Shown here piece by piece: positions 9,086 to 33,068 of a DNA stretch of 64,000 bases. Within the stretch, counting starts at the first letter, position 1; each line of letters starts with the position of its first letter. Position numbers and translations under genes: made by a program. The notes beneath the pieces were generated by a model. It ran no database searches. It was not told where the DNA came from and worked only from the letters and a program-made list of their open reading frames with translations. The stretch is from Clostridia bacterium (lineage in GTDB: Bacteria; Bacillota; Clostridia; TANB77; CAG-508): positions 11,417-75,416 of the forward strand of contig JAAWMH010000019.1 in assembly GCA_022798335.1 (NCBI GenBank). The letters run 5' to 3'.

Positions 9086-12000
9086 ATGAAAGTAAAACAA
9101 AAATTAATAGCCATTTTAATGACTACTATTATGCTTGGTAGTAATTTATTGATGCTTGGAAATCAGGTAATAGCAGTAGCAGATGAATTACAAATGCAAA
9201 ATAGTAAAACAACACATGCAAACATAGAATTTAATAGTTATTTAGAAACAAATACCCATAAACAAACTTACAGTATAAAAGATGGAGGAAAAATATACAT
9301 AGAACTTGCTGTAAAAGAAAGTGGTTATTTAAAAAATGGAATTGTAGAACTAAAAAATAGCAATTATGAAATAGACGAAAGTAAAATAGATACTACAAGT
9401 ATTGAAAAAATACAAAATGGGAAGATCTATTTGAAACAAATTTCATATGGTCAAAACGTGTTAATAGAATTGCCAATTACTTTAAAAAGAAGAGACAAAA
9501 TAGAAAAAGACATGTTTAGCAAAATTTCAGAAGTAAGTTTTAACGGAACTTATGTAGAAGGAAACGGAAAAGAAAAAGTAATTGAAAAGACAATTCAAAA
9601 TGAAATAAGTTGGAGCACGCAGCCAGAAATAGAGCTTACAGGAGATATTACAAAATACTTGCCATATCAAGTAGGTGAAACTTATGGACTTATGATACAA
9701 GCTAAAATAAATAGTAGTATAAAAGAAGTAGTATTACCAATTTCTAGTACTAACTTAGAAATTTTAGCACCAACTATCAAAATGCAAAAACCACAAAAAG
9801 TTACAGTAGTAGCAAATAGCACAAAAGCAACTAATGGAAGTCAAAATGAAGCAGCCTTCACAAAACAAAACTATCAATATGATGAACAAACAGGAAAAGT
9901 AATATTGCAAACACAAAATAATCCAGATGTACAAGGAAACATTGCTTGGATGGAAGGCAAAGATGAATATTTAGTAAGCTTCTTCTATGAAGGCAAAGAA
10001 ATTTATGATAATGCATTAGAAAATTTAAACAAAACCCAAAAAGAACAATTAAACATACCAATAAAAGCAAATATGCAAGTATATGGAGTAGAAGAAAATG
10101 TAGAAATAGAAGGAATGCTACCATATATCATAGAAGAACAAAAAGGAGAGTTAGTAGACTTTGCATTTGATAGTACAAAAGAAGTAAGCAAAGGATATTT
10201 ATATGCAAACTATGTAAAAGATACAAAACAAGAAACAACATATAATTTAAACTATGAAGCACAAATTTATCATGAAGACTCAGCACGATATATAGAAATA
10301 AAAGAAGCAGAAACAAAAATAGAAGCAACAAGACAAATAATAGTAGGAAACAACAGCATAACAAAAAATATAAAAATAGAAGAAGCTGTTTTCCATAAAA
10401 TATTAGGAGAAGAAGGAAGTATACAAATAACAGATACACAAGGAAATGTATTAGGACAAATAAATAAAGAAACACCAAAAGATGAAGAGGGAAATTTATT
10501 TTTAGATCTTACAGACAAAAAAGTAAATACCATTCATATCAAAACAACAAAACCAGTCCAAGAAGGAAAAATACAAATAAAAGTACAAAAAGCATTTACA
10601 AGCACACAAACTATTTCAGAAGAACAAATGAAAGAAGCTACTAAAATAATAGTAGGAGCAGAACAAAAAACCAATATACAAAGCAAAAATTTTACAAAAG
10701 AAATTACTATGAAAGAACCAGTTAGCAAAGCACAAATAAGCATAGAAGATGAAAAAGCATTATCTACTGTTCTTTTAAATGAAAATGTAAATATTAGAGT
10801 AGTATTAGACAATTCAAGTCTAGACTGTGCTTTATACAAAAATCCAAGTTTAAGAATTGAACTACCAACTTATATTAGTAAAGTAGAATTAAAAAATACA
10901 AACTTACTTATGAATAATGGACTAGAAATAAAAGAAACAAAAATAGTAAAAGAAGAAGGAAAACAAGTTATTTATGTAACATTAGAAGGAACACAAACAC
11001 AATATGCTATAGGTGCAGAATATAAAGGAACTATTTTGCTATTAAATACCAATATAGAAGTAGAAGCATTAACACCAAGCAATGAGAGCGAAATTATCAT
11101 GACTTATACAAATGAAAACGAAAAAGAAGAAAACTATCAAGGGCAAGCAAAAACAAAAGCAAAATTTGTAGCACCAACAGGAATAGTAGCAGCAAATGGA
11201 ATTACAGGATATAGCAAAAATAAAAGCGGTATTTTATCAATATCATCACAAAATGTAGAAGCAACTGTAGAAACTTATGCAGATAAAAAAATAGCAACAG
11301 TACTAGGAAAAGTAATGAATAACTATGAAAATAAAATAGCAAATGTTGTTATATTAGGAAGACTTCCAGCGCAAAACAATAAAGCAATTGATTCAAATGA
11401 GGAGCTAGGGTCAAACTTTACAGCACCTTTAAAATCAGAAATAAAAATAACAGGAATAACACAAGAAAAATATACTATTTACTATTCAATAAAAGAAGAC
11501 GCAAGCAAAGATTTAGAAGATACAGAAAATGGTTGGAGTACTACCAGAGATGAAAATGCAAAATCTTATTTAATAGTAACAAATAACTATGAAATAGAAC
11601 CAGGAGAAAAAATAGACTTTGAATATGAAGTAGAAATACCAAAAGACCTAAGCTACAATAGTAGCAGTTATGCAATGTATAAAGTATATTATGATAATGT
11701 ATCTACAGTAGGAACCATAGCAGAAACAAAAACATCGCCAATTGTAAAAATAGCAACAGGTCAGGGACCAGAATTAGATGTAAAAATAGCACCAAATGTA
11801 GAAACAATAAAAGAAGGTCAAATTGTTAAAATGAAAGTAACTGTTCAAAATACAGGAGAAATAGCAATTAACAACGCAAAGATTAATATACCAAAGCCAG
11901 AATATACAAACTTTGCAAACTTTTATGCAGGAGTAGGATTTGAAGAAGACAAAGAAATAGATCAAAAAACAATTAAATTAGGAAGTTTAGAGCCAGGAGA

Positions 12001-14071
12001 AACAAAAAATACTTATTACTATTTAAAAATAGATGATAATACTACATCATTTTCAGTAGCAGATCCAGAAAATGTAACAGAAGAAGAAGAAAAGAAAATA
12101 GAAGAAGCACAAAAATTTCCAAAGACTATTACTCACAAAGTAACAATTACAGCAGATGAAATTCAAAATGGAGAAATACCATCAAATGAATATACTATGA
12201 GTATACAAAAAGGTGCAATTTCTATTAAAATGGTTGGAAACATTGCAGAAGAAGCAGTTTTACACGAAGGACAAGAAGTAACTTATAATATTTATCTTTT
12301 TAACATCAGTAGAGAAGAAAGCTTAAGAAATGTAGTAGTAAGTATTCCGCTAGGAAATGCTTTAAGTTATATAAGTGCTAGTATGAAAGATAGTTTTACA
12401 GATACAAATGAAACAACTACAGGAATTACTTATAATGAGCAAACAAATAGTGTACAAATTGCTATAGATACATTTACAACAACAAAATTTATAACATTAA
12501 ACTTAAAAGTAAAAAAATTAGATGAAAATTTCTCAATTATGGCAACAGCAACAGCAGAAGGAAAAGAAGAACAATACTCTAATAAAGCAGAATACACAGC
12601 AGAAAAAATAAAAATAGAAGTATCAGAATTAACTTCTAGCCCTAAATATATACCAGAAAAAGAAGAAGTTACCTATAAATTTAACATAACTAATAAAGGA
12701 AACAGTACAGTTTATGGAATAAAAGTAACAGATACCTTGCCACAAGGAATTACTTTTAAAGAAGTTGTTATTACACGTGATGGAAAACAAGATAAAGTTA
12801 CTAATATGATAAAAGGAGAAGTAGTAGCATCAATTACCGCATTACAGCCAGAAGAAACAGCACAAGTTGAAATAAAGGCAAAAGCAGACTTATTAGAAGA
12901 CAAAAACGAAAAAACAATACAAAATAAAGCAAATGTAGTAGTAGGAACTTTAGAAACAATAGAAACAAATACAGTAACTAATATTATTGAATACAATGAA
13001 GACGCACATAAACAACCAATAAAAGACCCAGAAAGTAGTAGATACAAAATTAGTGGAACAGCATGGATAGACGAAAATCAAAACGGAAAACGTGATGAAG
13101 ATGAAAAACTATTAAGCAATGTACCAGTTATGTTAATCAATAAAAAAGACAATTCTATAGTAAAAGATCCAACTTCTAACCAAGAAAAAAGAACTACTAC
13201 AACTAGTAAAGGAACTTATCAATTTACTAATATACCAAAAGGAGAATATCTAGTAATATTCTTATATGATGCTTCAAAATATAGCTTAACTACTTATCAA
13301 GCAAAAGAAGTATCAGAAGAGCTAAACTCAGATGCAATTGATATTAGTATTGTGTTAGATGGAAAAAAACAAATAGCAGGAATTACAGATGTTATTAAAA
13401 TCACAAATACAAATGTAAGAGATATAGACATAGGAGTATATGTAGCAGAAAAATTTGACTTAAAATTAGATAAATATATTACTAAAATTACAAGAACTAC
13501 TCCAACAGCAGGAACAAAAGTATTTAATTATAACAATTCAAAACTACAAAAAATAGAAGTATTAGATAGAAACATAGGAAAAAGTTCTATTATAGTAGAA
13601 TACAAAATTGTAGTAACAAATGAAGGAAAAATACCAGGATATGCAAGAAAAATAGTAGATTATTTACCACAAGATGCAAGATTTAATACAGAAATTAACA
13701 AAGATTGGTATTTATCAGAAGGCAGTCAAAATGTATATAATGCAAGTTTAGCAGACACCATTTTAATGCCAGGAGAAAGTAAAGAATTAACATTAGTATT
13801 AAGCTTTAATATTACAAACAAAAATATAGGACAAACTCTAAATAATAATGCAGAAATATATGAAAGCTATAATGAACAAGGATTAGATGATATGGATTCA
13901 ATACCAGGAAATAAAGTAGCAGATGAAGATGACATATCACATGCAGACATTGTTTTAGCAGTAGTAACAGGTGGACAAATTATTCTATATGCAACATTAA
14001 CATTAATTATCATTACAGCAATTGGATTTGGAATTTATGAAATTAAAAAGAGAGTTTTAACAAAAAATTAG
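9086..14071 (+). CDS. giant surface protein A1 (signal peptide, Cna-B/SdrD-B-like and DUF11-like repeats, C-terminal membrane anchor)
   Basis: 1661 aa, with GGAGG 9 nt upstream. The signal peptide is MKVKQKLIAILMTTIMLGSNLLMLGNQVIAVA. An SdrD-B-like segment reads GTAWIDENQNGKRDEDE...GTYQFTNIPKGEYLVIF. The terminal repeat reads NNNAEIYESYNEQGLDDMDSIPGN..EDD. The tail is VVTGG plus a hydrophobic helix plus KKRVLTKN. Confidence 0.8.
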   Translation: MKVKQKLIAILMTTIMLGSNLLMLGNQVIAVADELQMQNSKTTHANIEFNSYLETNTHKQTYSIKDGGKIYIELAVKESGYLKNGIVELKNSNYEIDESKIDTTSIEKIQNGKIYLKQISYGQNVLIELPITLKRRDKIEKDMFSKISEVSFNGTYVEGNGKEKVIEKTIQNEISWSTQPEIELTGDITKYLPYQVGETYGLMIQAKINSSIKEVVLPISSTNLEILAPTIKMQKPQKVTVVANSTKATNGSQNEAAFTKQNYQYDEQTGKVILQTQNNPDVQGNIAWMEGKDEYLVSFFYEGKEIYDNALENLNKTQKEQLNIPIKANMQVYGVEENVEIEGMLPYIIEEQKGELVDFAFDSTKEVSKGYLYANYVKDTKQETTYNLNYEAQIYHEDSARYIEIKEAETKIEATRQIIVGNNSITKNIKIEEAVFHKILGEEGSIQITDTQGNVLGQINKETPKDEEGNLFLDLTDKKVNTIHIKTTKPVQEGKIQIKVQKAFTSTQTISEEQMKEATKIIVGAEQKTNIQSKNFTKEITMKEPVSKAQISIEDEKALSTVLLNENVNIRVVLDNSSLDCALYKNPSLRIELPTYISKVELKNTNLLMNNGLEIKETKIVKEEGKQVIYVTLEGTQTQYAIGAEYKGTILLLNTNIEVEALTPSNESEIIMTYTNENEKEENYQGQAKTKAKFVAPTGIVAANGITGYSKNKSGILSISSQNVEATVETYADKKIATVLGKVMNNYENKIANVVILGRLPAQNNKAIDSNEELGSNFTAPLKSEIKITGITQEKYTIYYSIKEDASKDLEDTENGWSTTRDENAKSYLIVTNNYEIEPGEKIDFEYEVEIPKDLSYNSSSYAMYKVYYDNVSTVGTIAETKTSPIVKIATGQGPELDVKIAPNVETIKEGQIVKMKVTVQNTGEIAINNAKINIPKPEYTNFANFYAGVGFEEDKEIDQKTIKLGSLEPGETKNTYYYLKIDDNTTSFSVADPENVTEEEEKKIEEAQKFPKTITHKVTITADEIQNGEIPSNEYTMSIQKGAISIKMVGNIAEEAVLHEGQEVTYNIYLFNISREESLRNVVVSIPLGNALSYISASMKDSFTDTNETTTGITYNEQTNSVQIAIDTFTTTKFITLNLKVKKLDENFSIMATATAEGKEEQYSNKAEYTAEKIKIEVSELTSSPKYIPEKEEVTYKFNITNKGNSTVYGIKVTDTLPQGITFKEVVITRDGKQDKVTNMIKGEVVASITALQPEETAQVEIKAKADLLEDKNEKTIQNKANVVVGTLETIETNTVTNIIEYNEDAHKQPIKDPESSRYKISGTAWIDENQNGKRDEDEKLLSNVPVMLINKKDNSIVKDPTSNQEKRTTTTSKGTYQFTNIPKGEYLVIFLYDASKYSLTTYQAKEVSEELNSDAIDISIVLDGKKQIAGITDVIKITNTNVRDIDIGVYVAEKFDLKLDKYITKITRTTPTAGTKVFNYNNSKLQKIEVLDRNIGKSSIIVEYKIVVTNEGKIPGYARKIVDYLPQDARFNTEINKDWYLSEGSQNVYNASLADTILMPGESKELTLVLSFNITNKNIGQTLNNNAEIYESYNEQGLDDMDSIPGNKVADEDDISHADIVLAVVTGGQIILYATLTLIIITAIGFGIYEIKKRVLTKN

Positions 14072-14089
14072 AGGAAAGGAGGAGAAAAA

Positions 14090-17000
14090 ATGGTACAAAA
14101 TAAAAAAATAAAATATGTAATAGTAGTTATCATAATAGCAATGGCTTTTATAGCAATAGGAATTTCTAACTTATTAGTACAATCTATGAATAAAATATAT
14201 CAGCCAGCGCTATCTAAGCTAAGTGAAGAAATGAACCCAGGAAAGCCAGCAGAAGGAGAAACAGACCCAGGGAGCTATAATTATAATGTAAATATACCAC
14301 ACTTTGAAATAAAAGATACTTCACAAACAACAGGAGACCCAGAATGGTTGCCGCTATATGGAAACTTTGAAATTTACTGTATTCAACCAGGAGTAGGACT
14401 TAGATATGGTTGGGAAGTAGAATATGAAGTGGCTTTAAGTTTAGTAGGAAAAACTTTCTCAAGTGCTCATGGATGTGCTACTTTGCCACATGAAGGAGAT
14501 AGAACACCAGTACAATTCACACCAGAAGGTGGAGGAACTCTATCACCAGCAATAGCTTATATTATTTCAGATGAGCCAGTAGGAGTATGGACAAGAAATA
14601 AGCAACTTGGAGTATGGAACTTATACTATAAATACGTAACAGACCCAGACACAGGAGAAACTCATAGATTAGATGGTGGGCTTATCATGTCAGACCCAGC
14701 AAATTCTACAACAGGTTGTGGACCATCTACTTATGACCAAGAAGCAGAAGACTATGGAGATTTTGACATTAAAGTAAGAGACAAAGGAATGAGGCCAGAA
14801 GATCAAACTGTTTATGAAGAAGTATATGTAGATGTAGACCAAACAAAAGATGAACTTACAGTAGGACCATTTACAATAGATTATACTACTGGTGTATATG
14901 GAGATATCGCTTTTGGTGGAATATCAGATATGAAACTAAAAGGATATAATAAAGAAGAAAATGAAGTAAGAGATGACATAGAAGTAGAAAGATTTGTTTT
15001 TGAAGACGATTTAAATGAAGGAAAAGAGCCAGAATACTTTGAACCAGACAATATGAAAGTAGATGAAACAGAACAAGTATATCCAGAGCCAGGAAAAAAA
15101 TTCTGGGTAGTTATTAAAAACCCAAATGCAGGACTTTCAGAAGATGACCCAGATAGAATAGCATCTGTTAACTTAAAAATTAAATTTCAGCGTATGCAAG
15201 CAGATGGAAAATATACAAGAATAAAAGCAACAAGATATACAGTAATTGCAAGTCCACATGTGGATACACCGCATAAAGACCCTATCCCTGGTATAGTTGG
15301 ATGGGGACAATATGGACCAATATGGGGAATAATAGGATATAGAGATTGCCATTCATGCATAAAAACAGGAGCATTATCTGCAGAACAAATGCAATGGTTA
15401 ATGGCGGCAGATGCAAAAAGAACGATTTTTGAAGAAGAAATAGAACTAGACAAAGTAAAAGTAAGTATTACTATGGATCTAGGAGGACACGTATGGGAAG
15501 ACTCAAAAACAGGAAAAGAATCTTTAGCAGATGGTGTAAGCAATACCTCAGGAACAGACGAAAATGGAAACGAATTTGATAGAAGACTAAAAAATGTAAA
15601 AGTAACACTATACACAGAAGATGGAGAAATAGCACAGCTATTATCAGATCCAAATAAAGGCGAAATTATGTCAAGAGTAAACCCAACTTATACCAATGAA
15701 GATGGAGAATACTTCTTTAAAGGAATAGACCCAATGAAAAAATACTATGTAACCTTTGAATATAATGGACAAATATACTTACCAACAGAATATTTAGTAG
15801 GTGGAAGTGGCAATGTAGAAGCAAGCATAGGAATTTATAATACCGAAATTTGGGAGGTAAACTCAAAAGGAACAGAAAAACCAGAAGACCGAGACGCATA
15901 TGACAATAAATTTGCACAAATAGGATCTTACCCAGAAAACTACCCATCAGATAATGAAATAGGTGGAAAAAACGGATATAATGCAACCTTTACACAAAAA
16001 GACTTAATGGGATATACTTTAAGCCCACAAGGAGATTATGTACAAACAGAGCAACAACTAATAGATGGCTTCTTATATGATAACGAAGGAAATCAAACAA
16101 GTGAATATCAAGATGGCGTAATATCTACCAAAATAAGAGAATACATAGAACAAAATAAGAAATTTCCAGATGAAGACGAATTAAAAGGAATCTATCAGCA
16201 AATTGCAGGTGGAGACGAAGAAACCTTGATGAAATTACAATTTATAGAAGACTGCAAAATAGAATCTTATACACAAGCCCAAGGAGGAGACTACGACTTA
16301 TATCCAGTATACGATATCTTCAGAATTAATCATGACACGGCAAATACAGAATTTGAAACTTTAAAAGAAGCACGTGAAGGAGATTATGACTTAACAGTAG
16401 AAGTAATTGAAGGAACAGAAAGAAAACCAATTTATCCAGGACAATTCTATATAAACCAAGGTTTATGGAGAAGACAAGAATCAGATATTTACTTAAGAAA
16501 AGACGTTTATAAAGCAACTTTAAAAATCAATGGAAGAACTGAAGTATATGACTATGATGAAAGAGACTTACTAACCCAAGGCGAAAGAGATACTTTAGAT
16601 AGGCTAGAGATAGAATATGGAAAAGATAGTGACCAGTACTTAGATTATGAACAATCACTAGACTTAGACCAAAGATTCTGGGAAATCAGATCAAGAATTG
16701 CAAATGGAATGTATGACTACTATTATGGAGAAGGTTATACAAGACCAATCTATCCATCAGATTATGAGTATACAGGACAAAATAAATTAGAAGCCTATGT
16801 AACCTATAAAATTACAGTAAGAAATCAATCACAAAGTATTCTAATGCAAGTAGATGAAATTGTAGACTACTTTGACTCAAGCTATACCTTTATGCCAAAC
16901 CTATCATGGGTAATGTATAGAGGAGACCACGAAAATAAAGAAGACATTAGAGTAAGAGACCAAGAATTCTATGATATTATGACAAGTGGCAACAAAAATG

Positions 17001-19279: not shown

Positions 19280-19284
19280 AAAAA

Positions 19285-19311
19285 GGGAAAAAGGGCCAGT
19301 CCCCTTTTCCC
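19285..19311. repeat. REP-like palindrome, subtype 2 (GGGAAAAAGGGCCAGTCCCCTTTTCCC)
   Basis: It lies directly after the B1 stop. A homologous element follows the B2 stop (33072-33102), and both are followed by CCTTTT(T)GGGG. Confidence 0.7.
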
Positions 19312-19383
19312 TTTTTGGGGTAATTAGGAACAAGTCAAGAACATATCACTTTAAAAGAGTATTTATTATGGAAGGAAAAAATA

Positions 19384-20670: not shown

Positions 20671-20695
20671 AAAAAAGGACTTTAGATCCTTTTTT
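20671..20695. terminator. bidirectional hairpin between convergent genes
   Basis: aaaaaagga-ctttaga-tcctttttt. A 9-bp stem is flanked by A and T runs, between the stop at 20670 (+) and the stop at 20697 (-). Confidence 0.5.
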
Positions 20696-20696
20696 C

Positions 20697-20915
20697 TTAT
20701 TTTTTTCTAGGATAAGGCTCAGGAGTATCAGTTAAACCAAGTAAATAATCAATACTAGTATCTAAAATAAGAGCAATCTTTTTTAAAGTCTCAATAGGAA
20801 TATTAATTTTTCCTAATTCATATTTACTATAATTTGTTTGACTAATATTTAACTGTTTTGCCATTTCTACTTGCTTTATTTCTTTATCCTCTCGCAAATC
20901 TTTAATTCTTAACAT
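20697..20915 (-). CDS. XRE-family helix-turn-helix transcriptional regulator
   Basis: 72 aa. QVEMAKQLNISQTNYSKYELGKINIPIETLKKIALILDTSIDYLLGL is a typical HTH_3 (Cro/CI) fold. Confidence 0.85.
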   Translation of the reverse strand: MLRIKDLREDKEIKQVEMAKQLNISQTNYSKYELGKINIPIETLKKIALILDTSIDYLLGLTDTPEPYPRKK

Positions 20916-20946
20916 AGTAATCTCCTTTTTTCTTAATTATAGGAAA

Positions 20947-20984: not shown

Positions 20985-20990
20985 TATAAT
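20962..20990 (+). promoter_or_regulatory. consensus sigma-A-type promoter for the pilin-like gene at 21034
   Basis: TTGACA (20962-20967), a 17-nt spacer, then TATAAT (20985-20990). The promoter is completely embedded in the palindrome. Confidence 0.6.
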
Positions 20991-22690: not shown

Positions 22691-22777
22691 AGAAAAAAAG
22701 TTCATTTCAATAGAAAAAGAAGTGGACTTTTTCCTTTTATAAAACAAAAACACACAAATAAAAATCTAAACTTTAAA

Positions 22778-22795
22778 CTTCCGTAGCCTTCCGTA
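22778..22795 (+). promoter_or_regulatory. two direct CTTCCGTA boxes upstream of surface-protein module 2
   Basis: cttccgtagccttccgta. It shares the 8-mer with 8957-8964 upstream of module 1. Confidence 0.35.
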
Positions 22796-22861
22796 ATTTA
22801 ACATAAAAAAATAATTATTTTCCAAAAATTCACATAATATGTAGAAAATAGCATAAAACAA

Positions 22862-22890
22862 TTGAAAAACAAGTAAAAATATCGTATAAT
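22862..22890 (+). promoter_or_regulatory. sigma-A-type promoter for module 2
   Basis: TTGAAA (22862-22867), a 17-nt spacer, then TATAAT (22885-22890), about 30 nt upstream of the A2 start. Confidence 0.5.
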
Positions 22891-22922
22891 GGTAAACAAG
22901 ACGTTAATTTTAGGAGGTTACT

Positions 22923-25900
22923 ATGAAAATAAAACAAAAAATAGTCGCAATACTAATGACAATATTACTAGTTGGAACAAATCTGATAACCTTAGGGAAC
23001 CAGGTAATAGCAGCAAATTTATCACAGCAAAATAGCAAAACAAATCATACTAATGTAGAATTTAATAGCTATTTTGAAGAAGGAACCTATAGTAAAAAAA
23101 TAAACATAAATGAAAAAGCTAAGCTAAGCTTAAAAATAAAAGTAAATGAAGTAGGCTATCTAAAAAATGCACAAGTAAATATACAAAACAGTAATTATGA
23201 AATAGATGTAGAAAATTTACAAAATACAGCAGTAGAAGAAGTAACAAAAACACAAGTAAAACTAAAACAAATAAAAAGTAATGAAGAAGTATATATAGAG
23301 CTACCAATCAAAATAAAAAAAGAAGAAAAGGTAGAAAAAGACTTTTTAGAAAAAATAAGTAATGTTATATTTACAGCAACTTATATAGACGAAAATGGTA
23401 AAGAAAAAGATATTCAAAAAACAATACAAAATCAAGTAATATGGCAAGCAAATCCAGAAGTGCAAATGACAGGAGAAGTAACTAAATATGTACCTTATAA
23501 ACAAGAAGAAGAATATGGTGTTTTATTGCAAACGCTAGTAAGCAGTGAAATAAAAGACCATATTTTGCCGATTTCAAAAACACAAATAAATATGCAAGTG
23601 CCACAAATAGAAGGAGAAAATCCACAAAGAGTAACCGTAATTGCAAATAAAACGCAAAATACAGGAAGCAAAAATCAAAGTTACCATTATGAAGAAACTA
23701 CAGGAAAACTAAATATACAAGTAGTAAATGAAGAACTAAATTGGACTAAAACAGGAAAAGATGAATATGTTTTAAACTTTATTTATGTAGGAGAAGACTT
23801 ATATCAAAAAGCACTAGAACAAGAATATAAAGCAAAGGTAGAACTAACAGGAGAAGTAACCTTACTAAATGAGCAAACTGTAGAAGAAAAAATACAAGTA
23901 AATTATGAAGAAAAAGAACAAAAAGGAAACTTAACAGGTATTTTTATTAAAACACAAGACACTATTTCGAAAGGTCAAATTTATGCAAACTATGACCAAA
24001 AAGAAGAAAATCAAAAAAAAGAAACCACCTATGAAATGGAATATACTATTCAAATAAATGATGCAAATTTAACAGATGAAGTAGTGTTACAAACAAAAGC
24101 AGAAAACTATATAGACAGTAAAGAAAATAAACAAACAGCAGGGGAAAATAGCTATATTAAACAAATAAAAATAGAAAAAGAAGTAATTACTCAGCTATTA
24201 GGAGAAGAAGGAACAATACAAATAACAAAAAAAGATGGAAGCCTAATAGGAACTCTTAATAAAGAAGAAAATAGCATAGAAATAAACGAGCAAGACTTAA
24301 GTGAAGTTATCATAAGAGTAAGTAAACCACAACAAGCAGGCAACTTAAAAATAATGGTGCAAAAAGCAATTTCTGCAAATCAAAGCTATACAAAAGAGCA
24401 AATGAAAGAAATTTCTAAGATTAGCACAACAGTTATTCTAGAAAATGAAAAAGTAGAAGAAGTAATACCATTTACAGAGCCAGTAAGCAAAGCAGAAGTT
24501 ACCATAGAAAATACAGGAGCAAACCTATCTACTATGGTAGTAAATAAAGATGTAGAAATAAGAGTAGTACTAGATACTTCAAATACACAAAGAGCTTTAT
24601 ACAAAGATCCAGTATTTGAAATAGAATTACCAAGTAAAGTAGAAAAAATACAAATCAAAGATATCAATCTATTATTAGAAGATGAAATGAAAATAAAACA
24701 AACAAAAGTAATAGAGAAAAATGGTAAAAAAACAATTCAAATTACTTTAGAAGGAACCCAAAGCAAATATAATGAGCAAATAGCAAAAGGAGCAACCATT
24801 ATATTACATGCAGATATCACTTTAAATAAATTTGCAGCAAGCAGTAAAGAACAAGTCATAATGTATTATACAAACCAAAATACAAACCTATACGAAAATA
24901 CAAATAGGGTAAAAGCAAAAAGTAGCCAAAATCAAGAAATAGGAATTGCCAAAACAGACCTTAATATTGTAGCACCAGCAGGAGTAGTAACAACTAATAG
25001 TATGAAAGGTTATGATGGAAATAAACAAATAGAAAGCATGAATGCGCAAAAACAAACAGCAACTATAGAGCCACAAGGAGAAAAGAAAACAGTTACAGTA
25101 GAAGCAATTGTTTCAAACCATTATTCAAATAATCTTGAAAATGTTATGATTTTAGGAAGACTACCAGTAGAAGGAAACAAAGAAATAGACAAAGAAAATA
25201 GTTTAAACAGTAATTTTACTATGCCAATGACGAAAAAAATAGAAGTAACAGGAATAGAAAAACAAAAGGTTAAAATTTATTATAGCACTAATATAGAAGC
25301 AAGCAAAGACTTAATAAATAATGCAAATGCTTGGCAAGAAGAAGCACAAAACATAAGAGACGTAAAAAGTTATTTAATTATGATAACAGGGGAAGTAGAA
25401 AAAGGAGCAACGATTGGCTTTAAATATGAAGTAGAGTTACCAGAAAACTTAAGTTCAGGAAAAGAAAGTTATCAAACCTATAAAGTATATTATGATAATA
25501 AAACTGAATCTGCAACAATAGGAGAAACAAAAGAGGCAGCAGTATTAGGAATTGCAACAAGCCAAAAACCAGAATTAGAAGTAACTTTAAGCTCTAATGT
25601 AGAAGAAAACAAAAATGTAACAGATGAGCAAATAGTAAAATTCTTTGTAAGTGCTAAAAATATAGGAAATAGTATAGCACAAAATGTAACAGCAAATATA
25701 GAAGTGCCAGAAGGAGCAAGTTATGTAATTTATCAATCTGGAACACAACAATATGAAGAATCAAACGAAAAAAATGTAACATTAACCATAGGAGATATTC
25801 CAGAAGGAGAAACCAAAAAAGTAAGTTATGAGCTAAAAATGAAACCAGGAAACTTAGAAAAATTCACACACCAAGTAGAAGTTATAGCAAAAGACTTAAG

Positions 25901-27812
25901 CGATGGAATAAAATCAAATACTTATACTTTAAATAGAATACAAACAAAACTAAATATGACATTATCTTTAGCAAGAGATCCACAAGCTACTTTAAATAAA
26001 GGAGATATTTTATATCCAGTATTAGTACTACAAGCAAAAGAAAACTTACAAAATGTAGTAGTATCTATGGAAGTACCACAAGGAATTAAAATTGCTTCAG
26101 CAAATTATCAAGATGAAAACGAACAAGAACAGCCAAATTATGTAAAAATAGAAAATCATAAAATAATAGTAACCATACCAACAATAAAAGCAGACTATTT
26201 ACAAAGTCTAAAATTAACACTAGAAGTACAAGACCATAAAGGAGAACTAAAACTAAGCAGCACTGCTACAGCAAAAGAAATAGAAAAAGTAAGCTCAAAT
26301 GAATTAACTTATTATGTAGGAACGCCAGAATTTGAAATAACACAAACAACAAAGGCAAATAAATACATAAAAGAAGCTGAAAATATTACCTATGAATTTA
26401 CTGTAGAAAATACAGGAAATGCAGATGCAAATGAAGTTGTTTTTGAAAATAAATTGCCAGAAGGGCTAACCTTTAAAAAATTAGAATACACCTATGAAGG
26501 AAATACAAAAACAGAAACCTCTACTTTAGACAATACAGCAAAAGTAAGATGGACTGTTTTCAAAAAAGGAAAAACAGCAACCATAAAGGTATTAGCCACA
26601 GCTGACTTATTACCAGAAGACAAAAAAGACAAAACAGTAGAAAATGTAGCAAGTATTTCATCGCAAGCAATAGAAACAAAACAATCTAATAAAATACAAA
26701 CAACCATAGAATATAATGAAAAATTATATGAAGGAAATACAGGAAATCAAGGAACAGATAAACCAAATAATACAGGAAGTTATAAAGTAACAGGAACAGC
26801 ATGGATAGACGAAAACAAAAATGGAACAAGAGAAGAAAATGAAAAAACAATAGCAGGAATGAAAGTAATGCTACTTCAAAAATCAGGAAGTCAAGTAGTG
26901 AAAGATATTGAAATTAGAGAAGAAAAAACAACAACTACAAAACAAGATGGAAGCTATGAATTTAATAACTTACCACAAGGAGAATATATAGCAGTATTTT
27001 TATATGATGCAGGAAAATATAATATTACAGAATACCAAAAACAAGGAGTAAGTGTAAGCTACAACTCAGATGCAGTATCTATGAACATTACTTTAGATGG
27101 AAAACAAAGAGTAGCAGGAATTACAGACACCATCAAAATTACAGAGGGTAATGCAAGAGATATTGATATTGGACTATATGTAGCAGAAAAATTTGACTTA
27201 AAATTAGACAAAACGATTTCTAAAATTACACTAACAACTCCAACAATTGGAACAAAAGTATATAACTATCAAAATGCAAAACTACAAAAAATAGAAGTTT
27301 TAGGACAAAACGTAAATAAAAGCAGTATGGTGGTAGAATACAAAATAGCAGTTACAAATGAAGGACAAGTACCAGGGTATGTTAAAAAAATAATAGATTA
27401 TTTACCAGAAGACACCAAATTTAGTTCAGAACTAAACAAAGATTGGTATATTTCAGATAACAACAATACAGTGTACAATACTAGTTTAGAAAATACCTTA
27501 ATAAACCCAGGAGAAACTAAAGAAGTAACGCTTATCTTAAGTATGCAAATTACAGACAAAAATATAGGAACAATTATCAATAACAATGCAGAAATTTATG
27601 AAAGCTATAATGAACAAGGATTAGAAGACATAGACTCTACCCCTGCAAATAAAATGCAAAACGAAGACGATATGTCAAATGCAGATATATTATTATCAAT
27701 AGTAACTGGAAAAATTGTAATATACAGTACTTTAACATTATGCATTTTATTTATACTAGCAATTAGTATTGTAATAATACAAAGAAAAGTTTTAATAAAA
27801 AAGAAAAATTAG
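22923..27812 (+). CDS. giant surface protein A2 (paralog of A1)
   Basis: 1629 aa. The N-terminus MKIKQKIVAILMTILLVGTNLITLGNQVIAA aligns with A1. Also shared are GTAWIDENKNGTREENE...GSYEFNNLPQGEYIAVF, NNNAEIYESYNEQGLEDIDSTPAN..EDD, and IVTG plus a helix plus QRKVLIKKKN. Confidence 0.8.
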   Translation: MKIKQKIVAILMTILLVGTNLITLGNQVIAANLSQQNSKTNHTNVEFNSYFEEGTYSKKININEKAKLSLKIKVNEVGYLKNAQVNIQNSNYEIDVENLQNTAVEEVTKTQVKLKQIKSNEEVYIELPIKIKKEEKVEKDFLEKISNVIFTATYIDENGKEKDIQKTIQNQVIWQANPEVQMTGEVTKYVPYKQEEEYGVLLQTLVSSEIKDHILPISKTQINMQVPQIEGENPQRVTVIANKTQNTGSKNQSYHYEETTGKLNIQVVNEELNWTKTGKDEYVLNFIYVGEDLYQKALEQEYKAKVELTGEVTLLNEQTVEEKIQVNYEEKEQKGNLTGIFIKTQDTISKGQIYANYDQKEENQKKETTYEMEYTIQINDANLTDEVVLQTKAENYIDSKENKQTAGENSYIKQIKIEKEVITQLLGEEGTIQITKKDGSLIGTLNKEENSIEINEQDLSEVIIRVSKPQQAGNLKIMVQKAISANQSYTKEQMKEISKISTTVILENEKVEEVIPFTEPVSKAEVTIENTGANLSTMVVNKDVEIRVVLDTSNTQRALYKDPVFEIELPSKVEKIQIKDINLLLEDEMKIKQTKVIEKNGKKTIQITLEGTQSKYNEQIAKGATIILHADITLNKFAASSKEQVIMYYTNQNTNLYENTNRVKAKSSQNQEIGIAKTDLNIVAPAGVVTTNSMKGYDGNKQIESMNAQKQTATIEPQGEKKTVTVEAIVSNHYSNNLENVMILGRLPVEGNKEIDKENSLNSNFTMPMTKKIEVTGIEKQKVKIYYSTNIEASKDLINNANAWQEEAQNIRDVKSYLIMITGEVEKGATIGFKYEVELPENLSSGKESYQTYKVYYDNKTESATIGETKEAAVLGIATSQKPELEVTLSSNVEENKNVTDEQIVKFFVSAKNIGNSIAQNVTANIEVPEGASYVIYQSGTQQYEESNEKNVTLTIGDIPEGETKKVSYELKMKPGNLEKFTHQVEVIAKDLSDGIKSNTYTLNRIQTKLNMTLSLARDPQATLNKGDILYPVLVLQAKENLQNVVVSMEVPQGIKIASANYQDENEQEQPNYVKIENHKIIVTIPTIKADYLQSLKLTLEVQDHKGELKLSSTATAKEIEKVSSNELTYYVGTPEFEITQTTKANKYIKEAENITYEFTVENTGNADANEVVFENKLPEGLTFKKLEYTYEGNTKTETSTLDNTAKVRWTVFKKGKTATIKVLATADLLPEDKKDKTVENVASISSQAIETKQSNKIQTTIEYNEKLYEGNTGNQGTDKPNNTGSYKVTGTAWIDENKNGTREENEKTIAGMKVMLLQKSGSQVVKDIEIREEKTTTTKQDGSYEFNNLPQGEYIAVFLYDAGKYNITEYQKQGVSVSYNSDAVSMNITLDGKQRVAGITDTIKITEGNARDIDIGLYVAEKFDLKLDKTISKITLTTPTIGTKVYNYQNAKLQKIEVLGQNVNKSSMVVEYKIAVTNEGQVPGYVKKIIDYLPEDTKFSSELNKDWYISDNNNTVYNTSLENTLINPGETKEVTLILSMQITDKNIGTIINNNAEIYESYNEQGLEDIDSTPANKMQNEDDMSNADILLSIVTGKIVIYSTLTLCILFILAISIVIIQRKVLIKKKN

Positions 27813-27832
27813 GAAAGGAGGAAAAAAAGAAC

Positions 27833-30800
27833 ATGAAAAACAAAAAAACATTAGGAATTCTTGTAATTCGGAATGACACTTATTCTAGTTACACTAGTAA
27901 TAGGATTTACAAAATTTTTTAGCATTCAAGGAGAAAAAATACAAGAAACAATTAGTCTTAGTAAAGAACAACTTGCTATAAATGGTTCAAAGCCAGCAGG
28001 AAATAGTAGTATCAAAGGAGCGCATGATGAGCCAGCTGCTTACCAAAACGGAAAATTTCAAGTAGAAGCATTAACTACTAATAAAGTATTTATACCAACA
28101 ATAGGCAATTACCAACTATACTGTGTTCAAAGAGGAACACCAATTTATATGAATAAAGAACTAGTAGCAACCATAAAAGCATTACACGGAGTAACAGGAA
28201 GTGTAAGTTCAAGCTATCATATGGCTTCTTTACCAGAAAAACGTTATTCAAATACTTACTATGTATGTAAAGATAAACATACAGAACTTGTAGCATCAGG
28301 AGCTTATATCATAACAGCTAAAAACTTTATAGCACCAATAGACGGAATTTATTCTTCTTATGGACAAACAAGTAGTTTCAAAAAAGGAGAAGATATTACA
28401 AAAGAAGTAAGGCAAGTAGCAATATGGCTTAACCCAGAAACAAATATAGGAGAATCTTTTTATACAAGCGGCTCTGTATTTACTTATATTGATATAGCAG
28501 AAAAGCTAAAAAATGAAGCATTAGATTATAAAGACTATGAAAATAGCTTAAAAGCAAATGTAAATGAACCAATCAAAGAAACTACAAAAGAAAATGTAAA
28601 AGTAAATGTAAATCAAAAAGAACAATACTATATTGTAGGACCATATAAAATGGACTATATAGAAGGAAATGCAAGTAGTGCAAAATTTGCAGGAATATCT
28701 AATATGACTGTCAAAGGATATAATGACAAAGAAAAAACAACACTAGTCAAAGAAATTAAAATAGAAAGTTATATTCAAAATGGAATAGAACAAAAATTAG
28801 ACTTTTTTGCACCAACCGAAGCAGAAGGATATGTAGACAGAAAAGAGCACTCTTACCCAAAAAGTGGGGAAGAATTTTACATTAAAATCAAAAATCCAAA
28901 CCAAGGTGAGTTAAATAGTAATAAAGTTGTAAGATATATAGATATAGAAGTAGAATATAGCTATATGACAGCATATGCTATAAAATGCGAACTAGAAGGA
29001 GAGCAACTAGTAGCAACACCAATAAGAACAAGCCATAATGATTCTTATGGACAAAATAACACATTCATTTCATGTACTGTAAATTATAGATGGAATGTAA
29101 CAAAAAGTCCATTACCACAACAAAAAATGATAGATGCATGGGGAGAAAGAAACTTATATAAACTAAAAATTAACCTAACAGGAGGACCAGAAGGAACCCC
29201 ACTTGATATTACCATGAAATTAGGAGGTTATGTTTGGGAAGATATAAAGGATAGTAAACAAACCATAGCAGATGGTATTCACTCAGGACTATATCAAGGA
29301 AGCGATAGTAAAGATAAAGTACTTCCAAATGTAAAAGTAACACTATATGAATGCAAAGTAGATGAAAATGGAAATATAGTTTACCAAAATGGAAAACCAG
29401 TAGGAACAGTAGCAGATCTTTTATCAGAAGCAGATAGAAATCAGTTATCAGAAGAAGAATTATTAAATAGAGTAAATCCACAAATAACAAACCAAAATGG
29501 TTACTATCAATTTGATGGATTAAACTCATCAAACAAATACTATGTTACATTTGAATATAATGGACAAACCTATTTACCAACAGAATATTTAGTAACAGGA
29601 AAAGACGAAAAAGGAAACTTCATTCATCAAAACTCAGTAGCAGATATGGTCATAAATGCAAAATTATATAATACTGAAATTTGGGAAGCAACCTCAAAAG
29701 GAACTGAAAATGCAGCAAACAGAAATAGCTATAATGCAAAATATGGAGAAATAGGATCATCACCCAAAAATTATGTATCTAGTAACTCATTACAAACAGG
29801 AATGCTACTAAGAGAAGCAGAAGCATATTATAACCAAACATTTAAAGTAAACGATTTAATGGGATATGTACTACAAGGAGAAGGAAAGTACCATGCAGAA
29901 GGAGTACAACTAATCGATGAATTTTATCAAATAGATGGGCAGGGAAATGTAGTAGAAACTGATACTCTTCAAGAAGGAGAAATCAGCAAACGAATTCAAA
30001 ACTATATTAAAAATAATTATGCTTATCCAGACGAAAATGCCATAAAAAATATTTATCAGCAAATCGTAAATGATTATGCAAGAAATGAAAAAGAAAGAGA
30101 AATTCTATGGAAAAAGCTACAATATATTGAAGACTGCAAAATGAATAGTTACACAGGATCACCATTTAATGATGGAGAAATAGACCTATACCCTGTATAT
30201 GATGACTTTGCAATAGATACACAAACAATGGTAATACCAGGAATAGGAGCAAAACCACCAATTTATAACGGACAATTCTATGTAAATTTAGGCTTATGGA
30301 GAAGAGCACAAAACAATACAGCACTTAAAAAAGATGTATTCAAAGCAGCAACTAGAATAAACGGAAAAACCGAAGTTTATAACTATGACAAAGAAGAAGA
30401 CGACAATAACTATTGGGAAATTAACTTAAGAATGAAAGACTATGCAAACTACTATGGTAAATCCTATAATAGAGAAATTTATCCAGCAGATTATAATTAT
30501 AAAATAGCAAATACCAGTCTGCAAGGTTCAGAATTAGAGTTATACGTAACTTATAAAATAACCATTAGAAACTCATCACAAAATATTTTGAATGAAATTA
30601 CAGAAGTAGTAGACTATTACGATAAAGACTATACTTATATGCCAAATCTATCTTGGGTAATGTATAAAGACACTGCACAAAGTGATAAAAAGCAAATAGC
30701 AGTACCAGAAAAGTCATATTATAATATGATAGCAAACCAAAACTTAGGAGAAATAGCAAACGCAAGAAATGTAGACAGTAGCTACTCTACAAGTGCTAAT

Positions 30801-33068
30801 AGAAATGGAAGCTATGTAGGAACAAGTATCTATGGAGAAATTACAAAACAAAACTTAGAAGAAAAATACAATGCAGTGTATGTACGAGGACTAAAAAATA
30901 AAAAAATAGAAACAGGAGAAAATGTATATATTTACTTAACATTCAAAGTAAATCCAGATGAAAAAGGACCAGTAATATTAGACGAAGACGATAGCCTAAA
31001 ACAAAATATAGCAGAAATTAATGGATATAAAAACTATTATGCAGATGGAACTGTTCTTCCAAATAATCAAGTAATACATGGAAACAATACTTATGCAGGA
31101 ATTATTGACAAAAATTCAACACCAGGAAACTTAAGCCTAGAAGACCTACAAGGAGAAAGATACGAAAAGAACTTTGAAGATGATACAGATAGAGCAAAAG
31201 GAATTAAAGTATTATTAGATGAAACAGCTGTAAGAAAGCTAAAAGGAACTGTATGGGAAGACGAAAGAACCCAAGAAGTAGAAGGAGCAGCAGTAGGAGA
31301 CGGTGTAAGACAAAAAGATGAAATCGGTATCAATGGAGTCACTGTAGAATTAGTAGAAAAACTAGAAAACGGAAACGAATATGTATGGCAAACGACTTTA
31401 TCAGGAAGCGGAAAAGGAACTAGAGTAAACCTAAAAACAGGAAAACTAGAAGAATATACATATAATAGAGGCGAAAACGGCTACTATGAATTTGCAGAAT
31501 TTATACCAGGAAACTATATTGTAAGGTTCCAATATGGAAACAATAAACAAACAGTAGTAACAACACCAAATGGTGGGCAAAATGCAGTATCCTATAATGG
31601 ACAAGACTTCAAAAATACAGTATATGCACAAGACTTAAAAAATAAAAAACAAATAGGAGACTATCAAGATAAATACTATAACATACAAGAAGCAGATAAC
31701 TTAAGTGTTAATGGAAAAGCAAATGTATCAGACGCAAAAGACTTGTGGGAAAATAGTACTGTAACAGTAGGAAGAAGAAAAGAAGGACAAACAAATTATC
31801 AAAATGAAACCTATCAAGGAAGAACTACAGTAAATCAATATGGAGCCAATAAAGTAAATAACTATGTAGCAGAAGTATTAGCATCCCCATATGCTAAAGA
31901 ACAAAATGAAGCGCAAATACAAGAATTGATGAACCATACACATATGGTGGCCCAAACAGGAATTATTGTAACAGAAGTAGAATATAACAGAACTAGTACA
32001 GATGGCTATAATGATGTAAGCAATGGTAAAGACACCTATCTATATGATAACGACAAAAATAGTAATTACACCATTAACCATGTAGACTTTGGACTAACAG
32101 AAAGACCAAAAGCACAGTTAGAACTTAATAAAAAAGTAACTAATGTAAAAATTACATTAGCTAATGGAAACACATTATTTGATGCAAGCCAATCAGTAGA
32201 TGATTTAGTTTGGGTAGCAGCAAAAAAATATGACTTAAATACCAAAATGAAAAAAGGAAAATATGAAGAATATTACGATAAGAGCAAAAAAGATAGTAAC
32301 TATCATCGTTACTCCTATAGAGAAGATATAAACAAATATATAAACGGACTATATCCAGGTGGAAAAAACGGACTAATTCAAGCAAGTATGGACGAAGAAT
32401 TAATGCATGGAGCAACGATACAAATTAGTTATGAATTAACTGTTAAAAACGTAGGAGAAACAGACTATACAGGAAAAGACTTCTACTATAAAGCTACAGG
32501 AGCAACAAAAGAAAATATTGTAACTACAACAGCAAATGAAGTAATAGACTATGTATCAAACAATCTGCAATATAGAGAACAAGATAATACTGACTGGAAA
32601 ATTGTAAAAGCAGAAGACTTAACTAATCAAGATGAGGGCAAAAAAGAACAAAGACTAGTAAATAACAGCTTAAGTGAAAACTTAGCTAAATTTAATACGA
32701 TAATACAAACCTCTAAATTACAAAAAGATTTAAAACCAGGAGAAAGTATGCAAAAAGACTTACAATTGACACAGTTAATAACAAGCCAAAATACACAAGA
32801 CGAAAAAACATATAACAATATAGCAGAAATAGTACAAACTTCAAACACAGTAGGAAGAAGAATGGCATACTCTATTGTAGGAAACCAAGACCCAACAGCA
32901 ACTACACCAAGTGAGGTAGACACAGCTAAATCAGAACAAGTAGTTATCTTACCACCATTTGGAAGCGCATACCTAATTTACATAGCAATCGCAATATTAA
33001 CATTAGCAGTTGTCAGTTTAGGGACGTACTTAATTATAACAAAAGTGTCAGTTAAGGGACAGTCTTAA
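27833..33068 (+). CDS. giant surface protein B2 (paralog of B1); its true N-terminus is separated from the long ORF by one extra C at 27869
   Basis: AGGAAAGGAGG lies upstream of the ATG at 27833. The sequence atg aaa aac aaa aaa aca tta gga att ctt gta att C gga atg aca restores MKNKKTLGILVIGMTLILVTLVIGF (a TM, as in B1). It contains YQLYCVQRG, RQVAIW, ERPKAQLELNKKVTNVKITLAN and VVILPPFG plus a TM. Confidence 0.75.

Follow-up and report, generated by a model that had tools for sequence, protein, structure and literature searches.

Two tandem gene pairs and their surroundings

The DNA analysed here (the window) is a stretch of 64,000 nt from assembly GCA_022798335.1 (contig JAAWMH010000019.1, positions 11,417-75,416, forward strand). 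Twice in tandem, it contains a pair of genes for giant proteins, which we call A and B, and each pair appears to form an operon with its own promoter-like site of the sigma-70 type (Table 1). This agrees with the original prediction of a duplicated two-gene module.

Table 1. Features of the A-B locus, in positions of the window
Feature	Position	Strand	Description
Promoter-like site, operon 1	9007..9034	+	TTGAAA, 16 nt spacer, TG-n-TAAAAT; about 50 nt 5' of the A1 start
A1	9086..14071	+	1661 aa
B1	14090..19279	+	1729 aa
Terminator-like hairpin after B1	19280..19316	+	-17.8 kcal/mol; a T run follows
Inter-pair orphan gene, 428 aa	19384..20670	+	No recognisable domain; outside the conserved module
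Pilin-like gene with Ig-like domains	21034..22690	+	N-terminus KGITLIALVV...; outside the conserved module
Promoter-like site, operon 2	22862..22890	+	TTGAAA, 17 nt spacer, TATAAT; about 33 nt 5' of the A2 start
A2	22923..27812	+	1629 aa; collinear paralog of A1
B2	27833..33068	+	About 1745 aa from the ATG at 27833; paralog of B1
B2, uninterrupted ORF	27873-33068	+	1731 aa
Counterpart of the B1 hairpin, after B2	33069..33112	+	Homologous sequence, degraded here

The -35 region of operon 1 aligns to the region upstream of A2. The two leaders, which had been described as homologous, have the TTGAAA box and a ribosome-binding site in common but little else. Spacing within the pairs is indeed tight, with 18 nt from the A1 stop to the B1 start and 20 nt from the A2 stop to B2, when the latter is read from the ATG at 27833. 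This ATG has GGAGG 10 nt upstream and lies one base out of frame relative to the ORF from 27873, so that a 1-nt indel masks the true start of B2; with this frameshift the earlier figure for the length of B2 stands. Sequences that follow B1 and B2 are homologous, as had been said of their 3' palindromes, but only the one after B1 folds into a good hairpin. Several genes of the window are split by frameshifts, which indicates that the assembly is imperfect, and the pilin-like ORF itself stops at 22497 and goes on in another frame to about 22690. Genes for sortases, pilus assembly, S-layers or secretion are absent from the 64-kb window, in line with the earlier statement that none is adjacent.

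The two genes between the pairs had been described as bracketed by them, the first as a regulator. Nothing supports that label; no domain was detected in the 428-aa gene. In other species the corresponding place is taken by different genes or spans only about 300 bp. Among 81 loci, homologs of the two genes were limited to one weak match of the pilin-like gene. Since the inter-pair genes vary by species, we place both outside the module and rejected them as members of the system. A phage or mobile origin was rejected as well, as there were zero PHROG matches. The 487-aa inter-pair product with the N-terminus KGITLIALVV carries Ala at +5, where the type IV prepilin leader G-(F/I)TL(I/V)E wants Glu, and matches no N_methyl or pilin family in Pfam or NCBIfam.

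In a full-length alignment A1 and A2 share 42% identity, and for B1 and B2 the figure is 36%, which confirms them as collinear paralogs. The blocks that had been quoted as near-identical are all present, but the copies as a whole are old, and the synonymous sites between them are saturated at such protein identities (36-42%). From these alignments, we take the whole operon to be present twice as a set of old paralogs. Orthologs of A2 in related species share 52-54% identity with it, and in other species the values are 56-66% for B2 and 44-59% for B1. Divergence is strongest at residues 950-1150 of A and over the first 450 residues of B; the description of diverged centres does not hold for B, where the N-terminus and not the centre diverges most.

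Domain anatomy of A and B

In A1, a signal peptide and a family-specific region of about 850 aa are followed by three CLIPPER/DUF11 repeats (about 885-1302), an SdrD_B domain (1320-1430), a terminal CLIPPER-like domain, the motif VVTG, a membrane helix and a KKRVL tail. The expectation that A would be rich in DUF11 and Cna-B-type modules is borne out: DUF11/CLIPPER (PF01345) scores 72.4 bits in A1 and 59.4 bits in A2 (Pfam cut-off 24.6), SdrD_B (PF17210) scores 46.5 and 47.4 (cut-off 29.7), the NCBIfam model TIGR01451 likewise matches, and profile-profile alignment with hhalign places three CLIPPER repeats in tandem. Against the PDB, the A-family profile finds SdrD structures at E = 9e-19, and sequence and profile searches of A return nothing besides these SdrD B domains. 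The first 850 aa, like the N-terminal tip of B described below, have no recognisable binding domain and no sequence match to solved structures.

B1 begins with a hydrophobic signal and a variable tip (about 47-460), continues with two modules of SdrD_B plus a CLIPPER-like domain (463-1112 and 1126-1690) and ends in an LPPFG motif, a membrane helix and a KKTVL tail. The SdrD_B scores of B1 and B2 (24.6 and 27.7) fall just under the cut-off of 29.7, CLIPPER/DUF11 gives no direct match in B, and sequence and profile searches of B against the PDB return nothing; the internal duplication was seen by profile-profile comparison, and large insertions occur in its CLIPPER-like domains. The proposed N-terminal anchoring of B is doubtful, as many orthologs have AxA-like cleavage sites past the N-terminal hydrophobic segment and the C-terminal helix offers an anchor instead.

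The C-terminal module of A is homologous to the B module (99.6% probability in profile-profile comparison). Both proteins have a common end, in which a terminal isopeptide-type domain and a short motif precede a membrane helix and an IKKKVL tail, and these C-terminal tails are conserved across about 160 proteins. Candidate isopeptide residues are K1463/K1467, E1505 and N1587 in A and K1402, D1495/E1497 and N1649/N1658 in B; they are conserved and stand in the order that the CLIPPER isopeptide triad would lead one to expect. The short motif is [LIV][VAK]TG in A and LPP[F/Y]G in B, neither of which equals LPXTG. This layout suggests that A and B are both anchored by their C-terminal helix.

The same ends could also be read as variant sorting signals, through which a sortase-like transpeptidase encoded elsewhere would link A and B to peptidoglycan. 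A motif, about 22 hydrophobic residues and a K/R tail, conserved in all these proteins, form the layout of a sorting signal; a few B orthologs have IPPTG, LPPTG or IAPTG; and the known thioester-domain adhesins are nearly all LPXTG proteins (PMC4450167). We regard this reading as unlikely, because A has no Pro and B nearly always has F/Y in place of the scissile Thr, and because neither the window nor 1.9 Mb of related loci, all drawn from this neighbourhood, contains a sortase-like ORF. Canonical sorting signals and TLxTC ORFs were also absent from all fetched loci, which sample this one neighbourhood. Moreover, the strong conservation of the IKKKVL tail suggests that a cytoplasmic segment is retained.

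Conservation within B is lowest in the tip, which is restricted to the clade, and yet a few residues of the tip hardly vary: C97 is kept in 75 of 77 aligned proteins, Q172 in 76 and W176 in 71, and a further Gln at 434/435, in a predicted strand, is also conserved. C97 stands in the motif (I/L)(Y/F)C(I/V)(E/Q), in a predicted strand (model pLDDT 85.8), and the motif KQxA(I/L/V)W opens a predicted helix. Published motifs of thioester domains (TEDs) are [YFL]C-hydrophobic-hydrophilic, TQxx-hydrophobic-W and hydrophobic-Q-hydrophilic-hydrophobic-hydrophobic, and the bonding Gln follows the Cys by about 130-150 residues (PMC4450167). The three motifs of the B tip agree with these, with K where TEDs have T, and the predicted order of strand, helix and strand fits as well; the Gln pattern, however, falls at 434/435, about 338 residues after C97, with a predicted beta-sandwich and long beta-hairpins between them.

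Profile and fold searches gave no such agreement. Neither B1 nor B2 is matched by the TED profiles (PF08341/TQXA) in Pfam and NCBIfam at E <= 0.01, 14 N-terminal regions of B show no TED in Pfam even at E <= 10, and a PDB profile search with the tip had no match. When 1.84 billion representatives were searched with an HMM, just 82 matched, and the eight weakest, which were scanned, have no domains beyond SdrD_B and further Ig-like stalk domains, and no TED. With the tip model, Foldseek found nothing in the PDB at E < 1e-3, although a multi-domain query may mask a weak match; the 50 matches listed all have TM <= 0.14, include no TED and are spurious. The helical lobe was modelled poorly on its own (pLDDT 53.7). 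The thioester domain that had been suggested for B thus has conserved motifs in its favour but no match to a TED profile or a solved fold, and for this reason we treat it as a hypothesis: the tip possibly forms a thioester. A cysteine peptidase was considered and rejected, as none of the His, Asp and Asn residues of the tip is invariant and its residue order is unlike that of papain-like enzymes.

Pairing, genomic position and divergence across species

A genome scan found 252 relatives, every one of them in metagenome-assembled genomes (MAGs) of gut Clostridia. The lineage is apparently the order TANB77, an uncultured gut group with small genomes. One A homolog is annotated 'hypothetical protein', and no source names are on record for B-family proteins. 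Across the loci of related gut MAGs, which number more than 80, each B gene with readable upstream DNA is preceded by A and, conversely, every A homolog checked has a giant B-like gene downstream. Co-occurrence outside this genome, on which the original prediction had staked the pairing, therefore holds strongly in both directions. Copy number varies, and about 18 species, each an independent MAG, have two pairs.

The cassette sits between minC and spoIIE in almost all of these loci, among core genes that include mreBCD and PBP2, and it was present in every related genome retrieved. At this site, loci L001-L004 have single or double A-B pairs, with a downstream neighbour other than spoIIE in L004; in L083 the A stop overlaps the B start and spoIIE does not follow. 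Small divergently transcribed genes beside the cassette are kept in all loci, and one of them weakly resembles the putative coat protein YlbD (E = 5e-4, under the Pfam cut-off).

Across species, the median identity of A and B is 38-41%, compared with 54-67% for the neighbours PBP2, MinC, SpoIIE and a WG-repeat protein. Judged by this comparison, A and B evolve fast. Cross-species identity below that of neighbouring genes is usual in exposed surface proteins.

Every relative examined has the cassette at one position among core genes, beside genes for division and sporulation, which suits a structural component of the envelope better than an accessory adhesin. A and B could thus form a layer, such as an S-layer substitute or sheath, that serves cell integrity or shape and not attachment. 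About 10-20 kb of the genome is spent on the cassette, with a genome of about 1.7 Mb in the complete relative OZ006978.1, and no S-layer gene was seen nearby. We nevertheless consider such a layer improbable, since an elongated stalk with a variable tip is unlike the architecture of self-assembling lattice proteins, and very fast divergence with variable copy number suits interaction surfaces better than a lattice.

The place directly 5' of spoIIE, together with the conserved divergent genes and the faint YlbD resemblance of one of them, could also point to proteins made during spore formation and located on or between the spore membranes. This seems highly improbable. The promoter-like sites are of the vegetative sigma-70 type, the two loci described above, L004 and L083, break the link with spoIIE, so that the adjacency may be merely historical, and a signal peptide plus a C-terminal anchor is, to our knowledge, not typical of coat or exosporium proteins. 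Finally, that the duplication is an artefact of the imperfect assembly, or a very recent and meaningless event, can be dismissed in view of the low identity between the copies, the closer orthologs that each copy has of its own and the two-pair arrangement of the independent MAGs.

A putative fibril cassette and its relation to known systems

We consider it probable that A and B are a co-transcribed, membrane-anchored pair that constitutes a lineage-specific, adhesin-like surface fibril cassette, and they most likely build the main attachment fibres of the lineage. A and B would be giant type-I membrane proteins, co-transcribed and probably coupled in translation, and exported through an N-terminal Sec-type signal. 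They would be held in the membrane by the end that consists of SdrD_B, the CLIPPER-like isopeptide-type domain, xTG or LPP[F/Y]G, the helix and the IKKKVL tail in the cytoplasm, while the stalks of CLIPPER and SdrD_B domains would push the N-terminal parts outward from the cell. The B tip, with its Cys, its Gln-x-x-x-Trp helix and its further Gln, would be the binding head, and it may form a thioester for covalent attachment. Gene adjacency and the common module, taken by themselves, suggest that A and B associate, presumably via their homologous membrane-proximal modules. The two operon copies, with their own promoters, could provide two binding or antigenic variants.

Among the closest counterparts of B are the thioester-isopeptide-ester (TIE) domain adhesins, which include SfbI, Cpa and CpTIE/Cpe0147 (Walden et al. 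2015, PMC4450167). Like B, they have a secretion signal, a head in which a [YFL]C-hydrophobic-hydrophilic Cys strand and conserved Gln residues are the only invariants, a helical (T/K)QxA(I/V/L)W motif and an isopeptide-type stalk that holds the head off the cell. Unlike them, B has no TED profile or fold match, a much longer distance from Cys to Gln, a C-terminal membrane helix in place of LPXTG and, always, a dedicated partner gene. Fibrillar adhesins typically have CLIPPER stalks (PMC12617251). A and B share with them their great length and, in A, three tandem CLIPPER domains above the Pfam cut-off; the last domain of both A and B is CLIPPER-like and conserves Lys, Glu/Asp and Asn positions. 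The characterised example, in contrast, is Gram-negative and has an OmpA-like anchor (PMC12617251), whereas A and B have a membrane helix, the domains of B contain large inserts and A-B is an obligate gene pair. The resemblance of A to staphylococcal SdrD and other MSCRAMMs lies in the B domains, including a G-x-V/A-W-x-D...NG motif, and in their presumed role as calcium-stiffened spacers; the A-region ligand-binding domain, SD repeats and LPXTG are missing from A and B, and the domain context is quite different.

Gram-positive sortase pilus operons, which encode a tip adhesin, a shaft pilin and a class C sortase, also have adjacent, co-transcribed genes for isopeptide-domain surface proteins, and their tip protein may bear thioester domains, as in Cpa. 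No sortase gene lies in or near the A-B cassette, however, and since A and B each have about 1700 aa and their own membrane anchor, a polymerised shaft is unlikely. A Tad-like pilus cluster is reported to be conserved in TANB77; its pilins, of 143-236 aa, were selected by requiring 80% similarity or more (Kim et al. 2024, PMC11680825). It occurs in what is apparently the same uncultured lineage and is likewise a lineage-restricted surface structure and a candidate host-interaction factor, but the A-B genes and their locus are unrelated to it, and with 30-45% identity between species A and B cannot pass the threshold of that study.

A more far-reaching version, which we propose tentatively and consider rather unlikely in all its parts together, is that the B tip represents an expanded thioester domain of a new class and the sortase-free A-B fibril the defining covalent attachment organelle, and main antigen, of TANB77. 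A beta-sandwich and a His/Cys-rich hairpin would then be inserted between the Cys and its bonding Gln, and the heteromeric fibril would bind host mucus, or partner cells that the small-genome TANB77 would need, covalently, while being the main fast-evolving surface antigen.

TANB77 is a prevalent, wholly uncultured gut order with reduced genomes. A link between its abundance and the response to cancer immunotherapy has been reported, with the Tad-like pilus proposed as the active factor (PMC11680825). The A-B cassette would represent a second lineage-restricted surface system in this order, much larger than the pilus. If A and B do form surface fibrils, they are prime candidates for attachment to the host or to partner cells, which bears on attempts at culturing, and they would be dominant antigens. 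For the biology of adhesins, they would add a form of the thioester/isopeptide stalk that needs no sortase and comes obligately as a pair, and possibly a new class of thioester domain.

Two collinear A-B pairs in a conserved neighbourhood

The window has a G+C content of about 29% and looks like Clostridia chromosome. Its genes run radC, mreB, mreC, mreD, PBP2, minC and three small minus-strand genes up to A1, which is followed by B1, an orphan gene of 428 aa, a gene whose N-terminus is pilin-like, A2 and B2; 3' of B2 lie spoIIE, a WG-repeat gene, acpS and tatD and, farther on, rpoB and rpoC (see Table). Several of these genes are split by frameshifts. As the window's split essential genes are intact in related loci (for example PBP2 with 692-700 aa and SpoIIE with 826-829 aa), the breaks point to assembly indel errors rather than real pseudogenes.

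The two pairs had been described as collinear duplicates, and the alignments agree: A1 and A2 are 42% identical over their full length, B1 and B2 are 36% identical, and all motifs quoted for these proteins in the original prediction were found in them. By BLASTP, A and B have only their C-terminal part in common. B1 begins 18 nt after the A1 stop. For B2, an ATG preceded by GGAGG at a distance of 10 nt opens a reading frame that starts with MKNKKTLGILVI, in keeping with the N-terminus of the B family; the long ORF is offset from it by one base. The true B2 thus begins 20 nt after A2 and has the length that had been estimated. Both pairs have their own sigma-70-type promoter-like site. The leaders of A1 and A2, which had been called homologous, are weakly alike; of the supposed 3' palindromes, the stretches downstream of B1 and B2 are indeed homologous, but a good terminator-like hairpin folds at the B1 copy only.

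Features of the A-B region and its flanks, with frame breaks
Feature	Position	Strand	Remark
minC	7210-7875
Small divergent gene	7924-8238	-	104 aa; in about half of related loci
Small divergent gene	8228-8614	-	128 aa; in nearly all related loci
Small divergent gene	8644-8799	-	51 aa; in a few related loci
Promoter-like site, operon 1	9007-9034	+	sigma-70-type; TTGAAA-N16-TGnTAAAAT
A1	9086-14071	+	1661 aa
B1	14090-19279	+	1729 aa
Orphan gene	19384-20670		428 aa
Pilin-like gene	21034-22690		about 550 aa
Promoter-like site, operon 2	22862-22890	+	sigma-70-type; TTGAAA-N17-TATAAT
A2	22923-27812	+	1629 aa
B2	ORF 27873-33068; ATG 27833	+	about 1745 aa from 27833
WG-repeat and 409-aa genes	36278-38952
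mreB, frameshift-split	2595-3125 / 3196-3624
PBP2, frameshift-split	5109-5657 / 5947-7206
Frame break, 3' end of pilin-like gene	22497-22690
Frame break, B2 start	27833 / 27873
spoIIE, frameshift-split	33519-35420 / 35444-36013
rpoC, frameshift-split	55085-57286 / 57255-58598

Conservation of the pair and of its position

A search with B1 returned 88 relatives, none carrying a source name, whose contigs hold a single A-B pair at the position known from the window, in the order PBP2, minC, small reverse genes, A, B, spoIIE. When one genome per species was scanned, 252 relatives came up, all from MAGs of uncultured gut Clostridia; among these are Clostridium sp. CAG:273 and CAG:508 and a complete chromosome of 1.70 Mb (OZ006978.1). 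Going by their names, we take CAG:508 and CAG:273 to belong to the order TANB77. When the window proteins were compared with 81 loci by tblastn, A lay directly 5' of B in every locus with upstream DNA, the neighbouring genes were almost always the same ones where flanks exist, and about 18 species had two tandem pairs. Approached from the other side, A1 has 205 full-length relatives, the sole named one being a "hypothetical protein", and a giant B-like gene lies downstream of A in all three contexts checked. The pairing suspected in the original prediction is therefore real, seen from both genes, and more general than the window could reveal, as the same cassette recurs across relatives. As one of the three contexts, a more distant metagenomic contig (L083, 1-23343), has two A-type genes, each with a giant partner (2003 aa and 2672 aa, neither with a Pfam match) whose start codon overlaps the A stop, the A-plus-partner design reaches beyond the core family. 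In the downstream DNA of this contig, spoIIE is absent after the pair.

Several species have orthologs of A2 and B2 at 52-66% identity, and those of B1 are at 44-59%; the duplication thus predates these species. An assembly artefact is ruled out by the 36-42% identity of the paralogs, the two-pair species and these copy-specific orthologs. When the loci are compared with the window, A and B reach a median identity of 38-41%, and PBP2, MinC, SpoIIE and the WG-repeat protein one of 54-67%. The cassette diverges fast, like exposed surface proteins, yet it is retained in all relatives examined.

The content between duplicated pairs varies by species. It consists of a 611-aa and a 160-aa gene in one related locus (L036), of only about 300 bp in another (L009), and in a third (L020, 8131-11845) of 163-aa/253-257-aa gene pairs in tandem duplication that resemble sigma and anti-sigma factors; the second A of L020 (13232-15484) is truncated to 750 aa but retains its CLIPPER domains and anchor. 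Since neither the 428-aa gene nor the pilin-like gene has a counterpart between the pairs of these three loci, we rejected both as module parts and regard them as inserts. The "regulator" label once given to the 428-aa gene finds no support: the protein has no match in Pfam, NCBIfam or PHROG, and no homolog in the 81 loci. The pilin-like protein has a prepilin-like N-terminus (KGITLIALVV), in which Ala takes the place of Glu at +5, and weak matches to Ig-like domains (Big_7, Y_Y_Y); it matches no pilin family, lacks a counterpart in related A-B loci and, at about 550 aa, differs from the pilins (143-236 aa) of a Tad-like pilus reported for apparently the same lineage.

In the flanks, the three small genes divergent from A1, none with a family assignment, recur in the minC-A interval of most related loci, each at its own frequency (see Table). 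What comes after minC, both here and in all related loci, is small reverse genes and A-B rather than minD/minE. Downstream of spoIIE, the window encodes a WG-repeat protein and a 409-aa protein without family match. Nearly all related loci likewise have the WG-repeat gene 3' of spoIIE, and in L001-L003, the three annotated loci that were inspected, it is followed by a gene of 409-417 aa.

Domain anatomy, anchor and tip

The DUF11 and Cna-B-type modules proposed for A were confirmed, with DUF11 (CLIPPER, PF01345) and SdrD_B (PF17210) both above Pfam cut-offs. [quoted passage not shown] The A-family profile matches SdrD B domains (E = 9e-19), and profile-profile comparison places three CLIPPER repeats at about 885-1302; residues 1 to about 850 match nothing in Pfam or the PDB. 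B consists of the tip, then two SdrD_B + CLIPPER-like modules at 463-1112 and 1126-1690, and A 1315-1661 is homologous to B 1120-1727 (99.6% probability, E = 2.6e-24).

Among about 160 A and B proteins, the C-terminus of A reads EDDxSxAD...[LIV][VAK]TG, followed by a membrane helix and then IKK(R/K/H)VL; that of B reads (I/V)LPP(F/Y)G, again with a membrane helix behind it, and closes with IKKKVL, the motif having rare variants in B (IPPTG, LPPTG, IAPTG). These tails have the same three-part layout as a cell-wall sorting signal, but LPXTG is the motif of neither A nor B. Wall anchoring by a variant sortase is an alternative that we think unlikely: as had been noted for the adjacent genes, no sortase occurs in the window, nor in 1.9 Mb of related loci, which represent one neighbourhood.

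The tip (B residues 1-450) is the least conserved part, with 8-22% identity between paralogs. Nevertheless, C97, Q172, W176 and a Gln at 434/435 (B1 numbering) are almost invariant in 81 proteins, within the motifs (I/L)(Y/F)C(I/V)(E/Q), KQxA(I/L/V)W and hydrophobic-Q-hydrophilic-hydrophobic-hydrophobic. Three motifs define thioester domains (PMC4450167), and the tip matches them in their order. In an AlphaFold2 model covering residues 36-461 (pLDDT 85.8, pTM 0.80), a small alpha/beta lobe leads through a beta-sandwich to very long beta-hairpins, and the motifs fall in a strand, a helix and a strand. The bonding Gln of thioester domains follows the Cys by 130-150 residues, whereas the candidate Gln of the tip follows by about 338. 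No thioester-domain profile of Pfam or NCBIfam matched B at any threshold, a PDB profile search with the tip found nothing, and Foldseek against the PDB gave no match at E < 1e-3 (the 50 listed all had TM <= 0.14). Among 1.84 billion representative proteins, a profile search found 82 matches only, mostly full-length B-like proteins or fragments, and the eight weakest, when scanned, contained no thioester domain. The tip is thus a clade-restricted domain; that it forms a thioester is no more than a reasonable hypothesis. Many B proteins (for example P0002, P0077 and P0080-P0082) have a His/Cys-rich insert (such as SHNHSYNYHYCYTCHH...GCKTTC) in the tip's long beta-hairpin, aligned to B1 at about 385-425, which may form a knob that binds metal or is rich in disulfides; little of this insert is left in the window's B1 and B2.

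The pair in an uncultured gut lineage

The GTDB order TANB77, of which CAG-508 is one of the major families, is a gut clade with reduced genomes, none of whose members has been cultured (PMC11680825, 10.1101/2022.02.09.479829). The TANB77 paper reports a conserved Tad-like pilus cluster under a filter of at least 80% similarity and is silent on sortases, adhesins and surface proteins (PMC11680825). The identity of A and B between species, 30-45%, is too low for them to pass this filter.

That A and B build a structural envelope layer seems to us improbable. A role linked to sporulation, suggested only by the neighbouring spoIIE and by the 51-aa gene, which weakly resembles the putative spore-coat protein YlbD (E = 5e-4, below cut-off), is very improbable. 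In the literature searched, we did not find the obligate A-B pairing, the common membrane-anchor module or the clade-restricted tip described, nor a fixed core-genome position of this kind in a clinically noted uncultured lineage. The parts themselves are of known kinds, namely the CLIPPER/SdrD_B stalks and a head similar to that of thioester-isopeptide-ester (TIE) adhesins. The best-supported reading, which we hold with moderate confidence, is that A and B are giant surface proteins, stalk-like and anchored in the membrane by their C-termini, which are co-expressed as a pair and of which B would bear a variable binding head.
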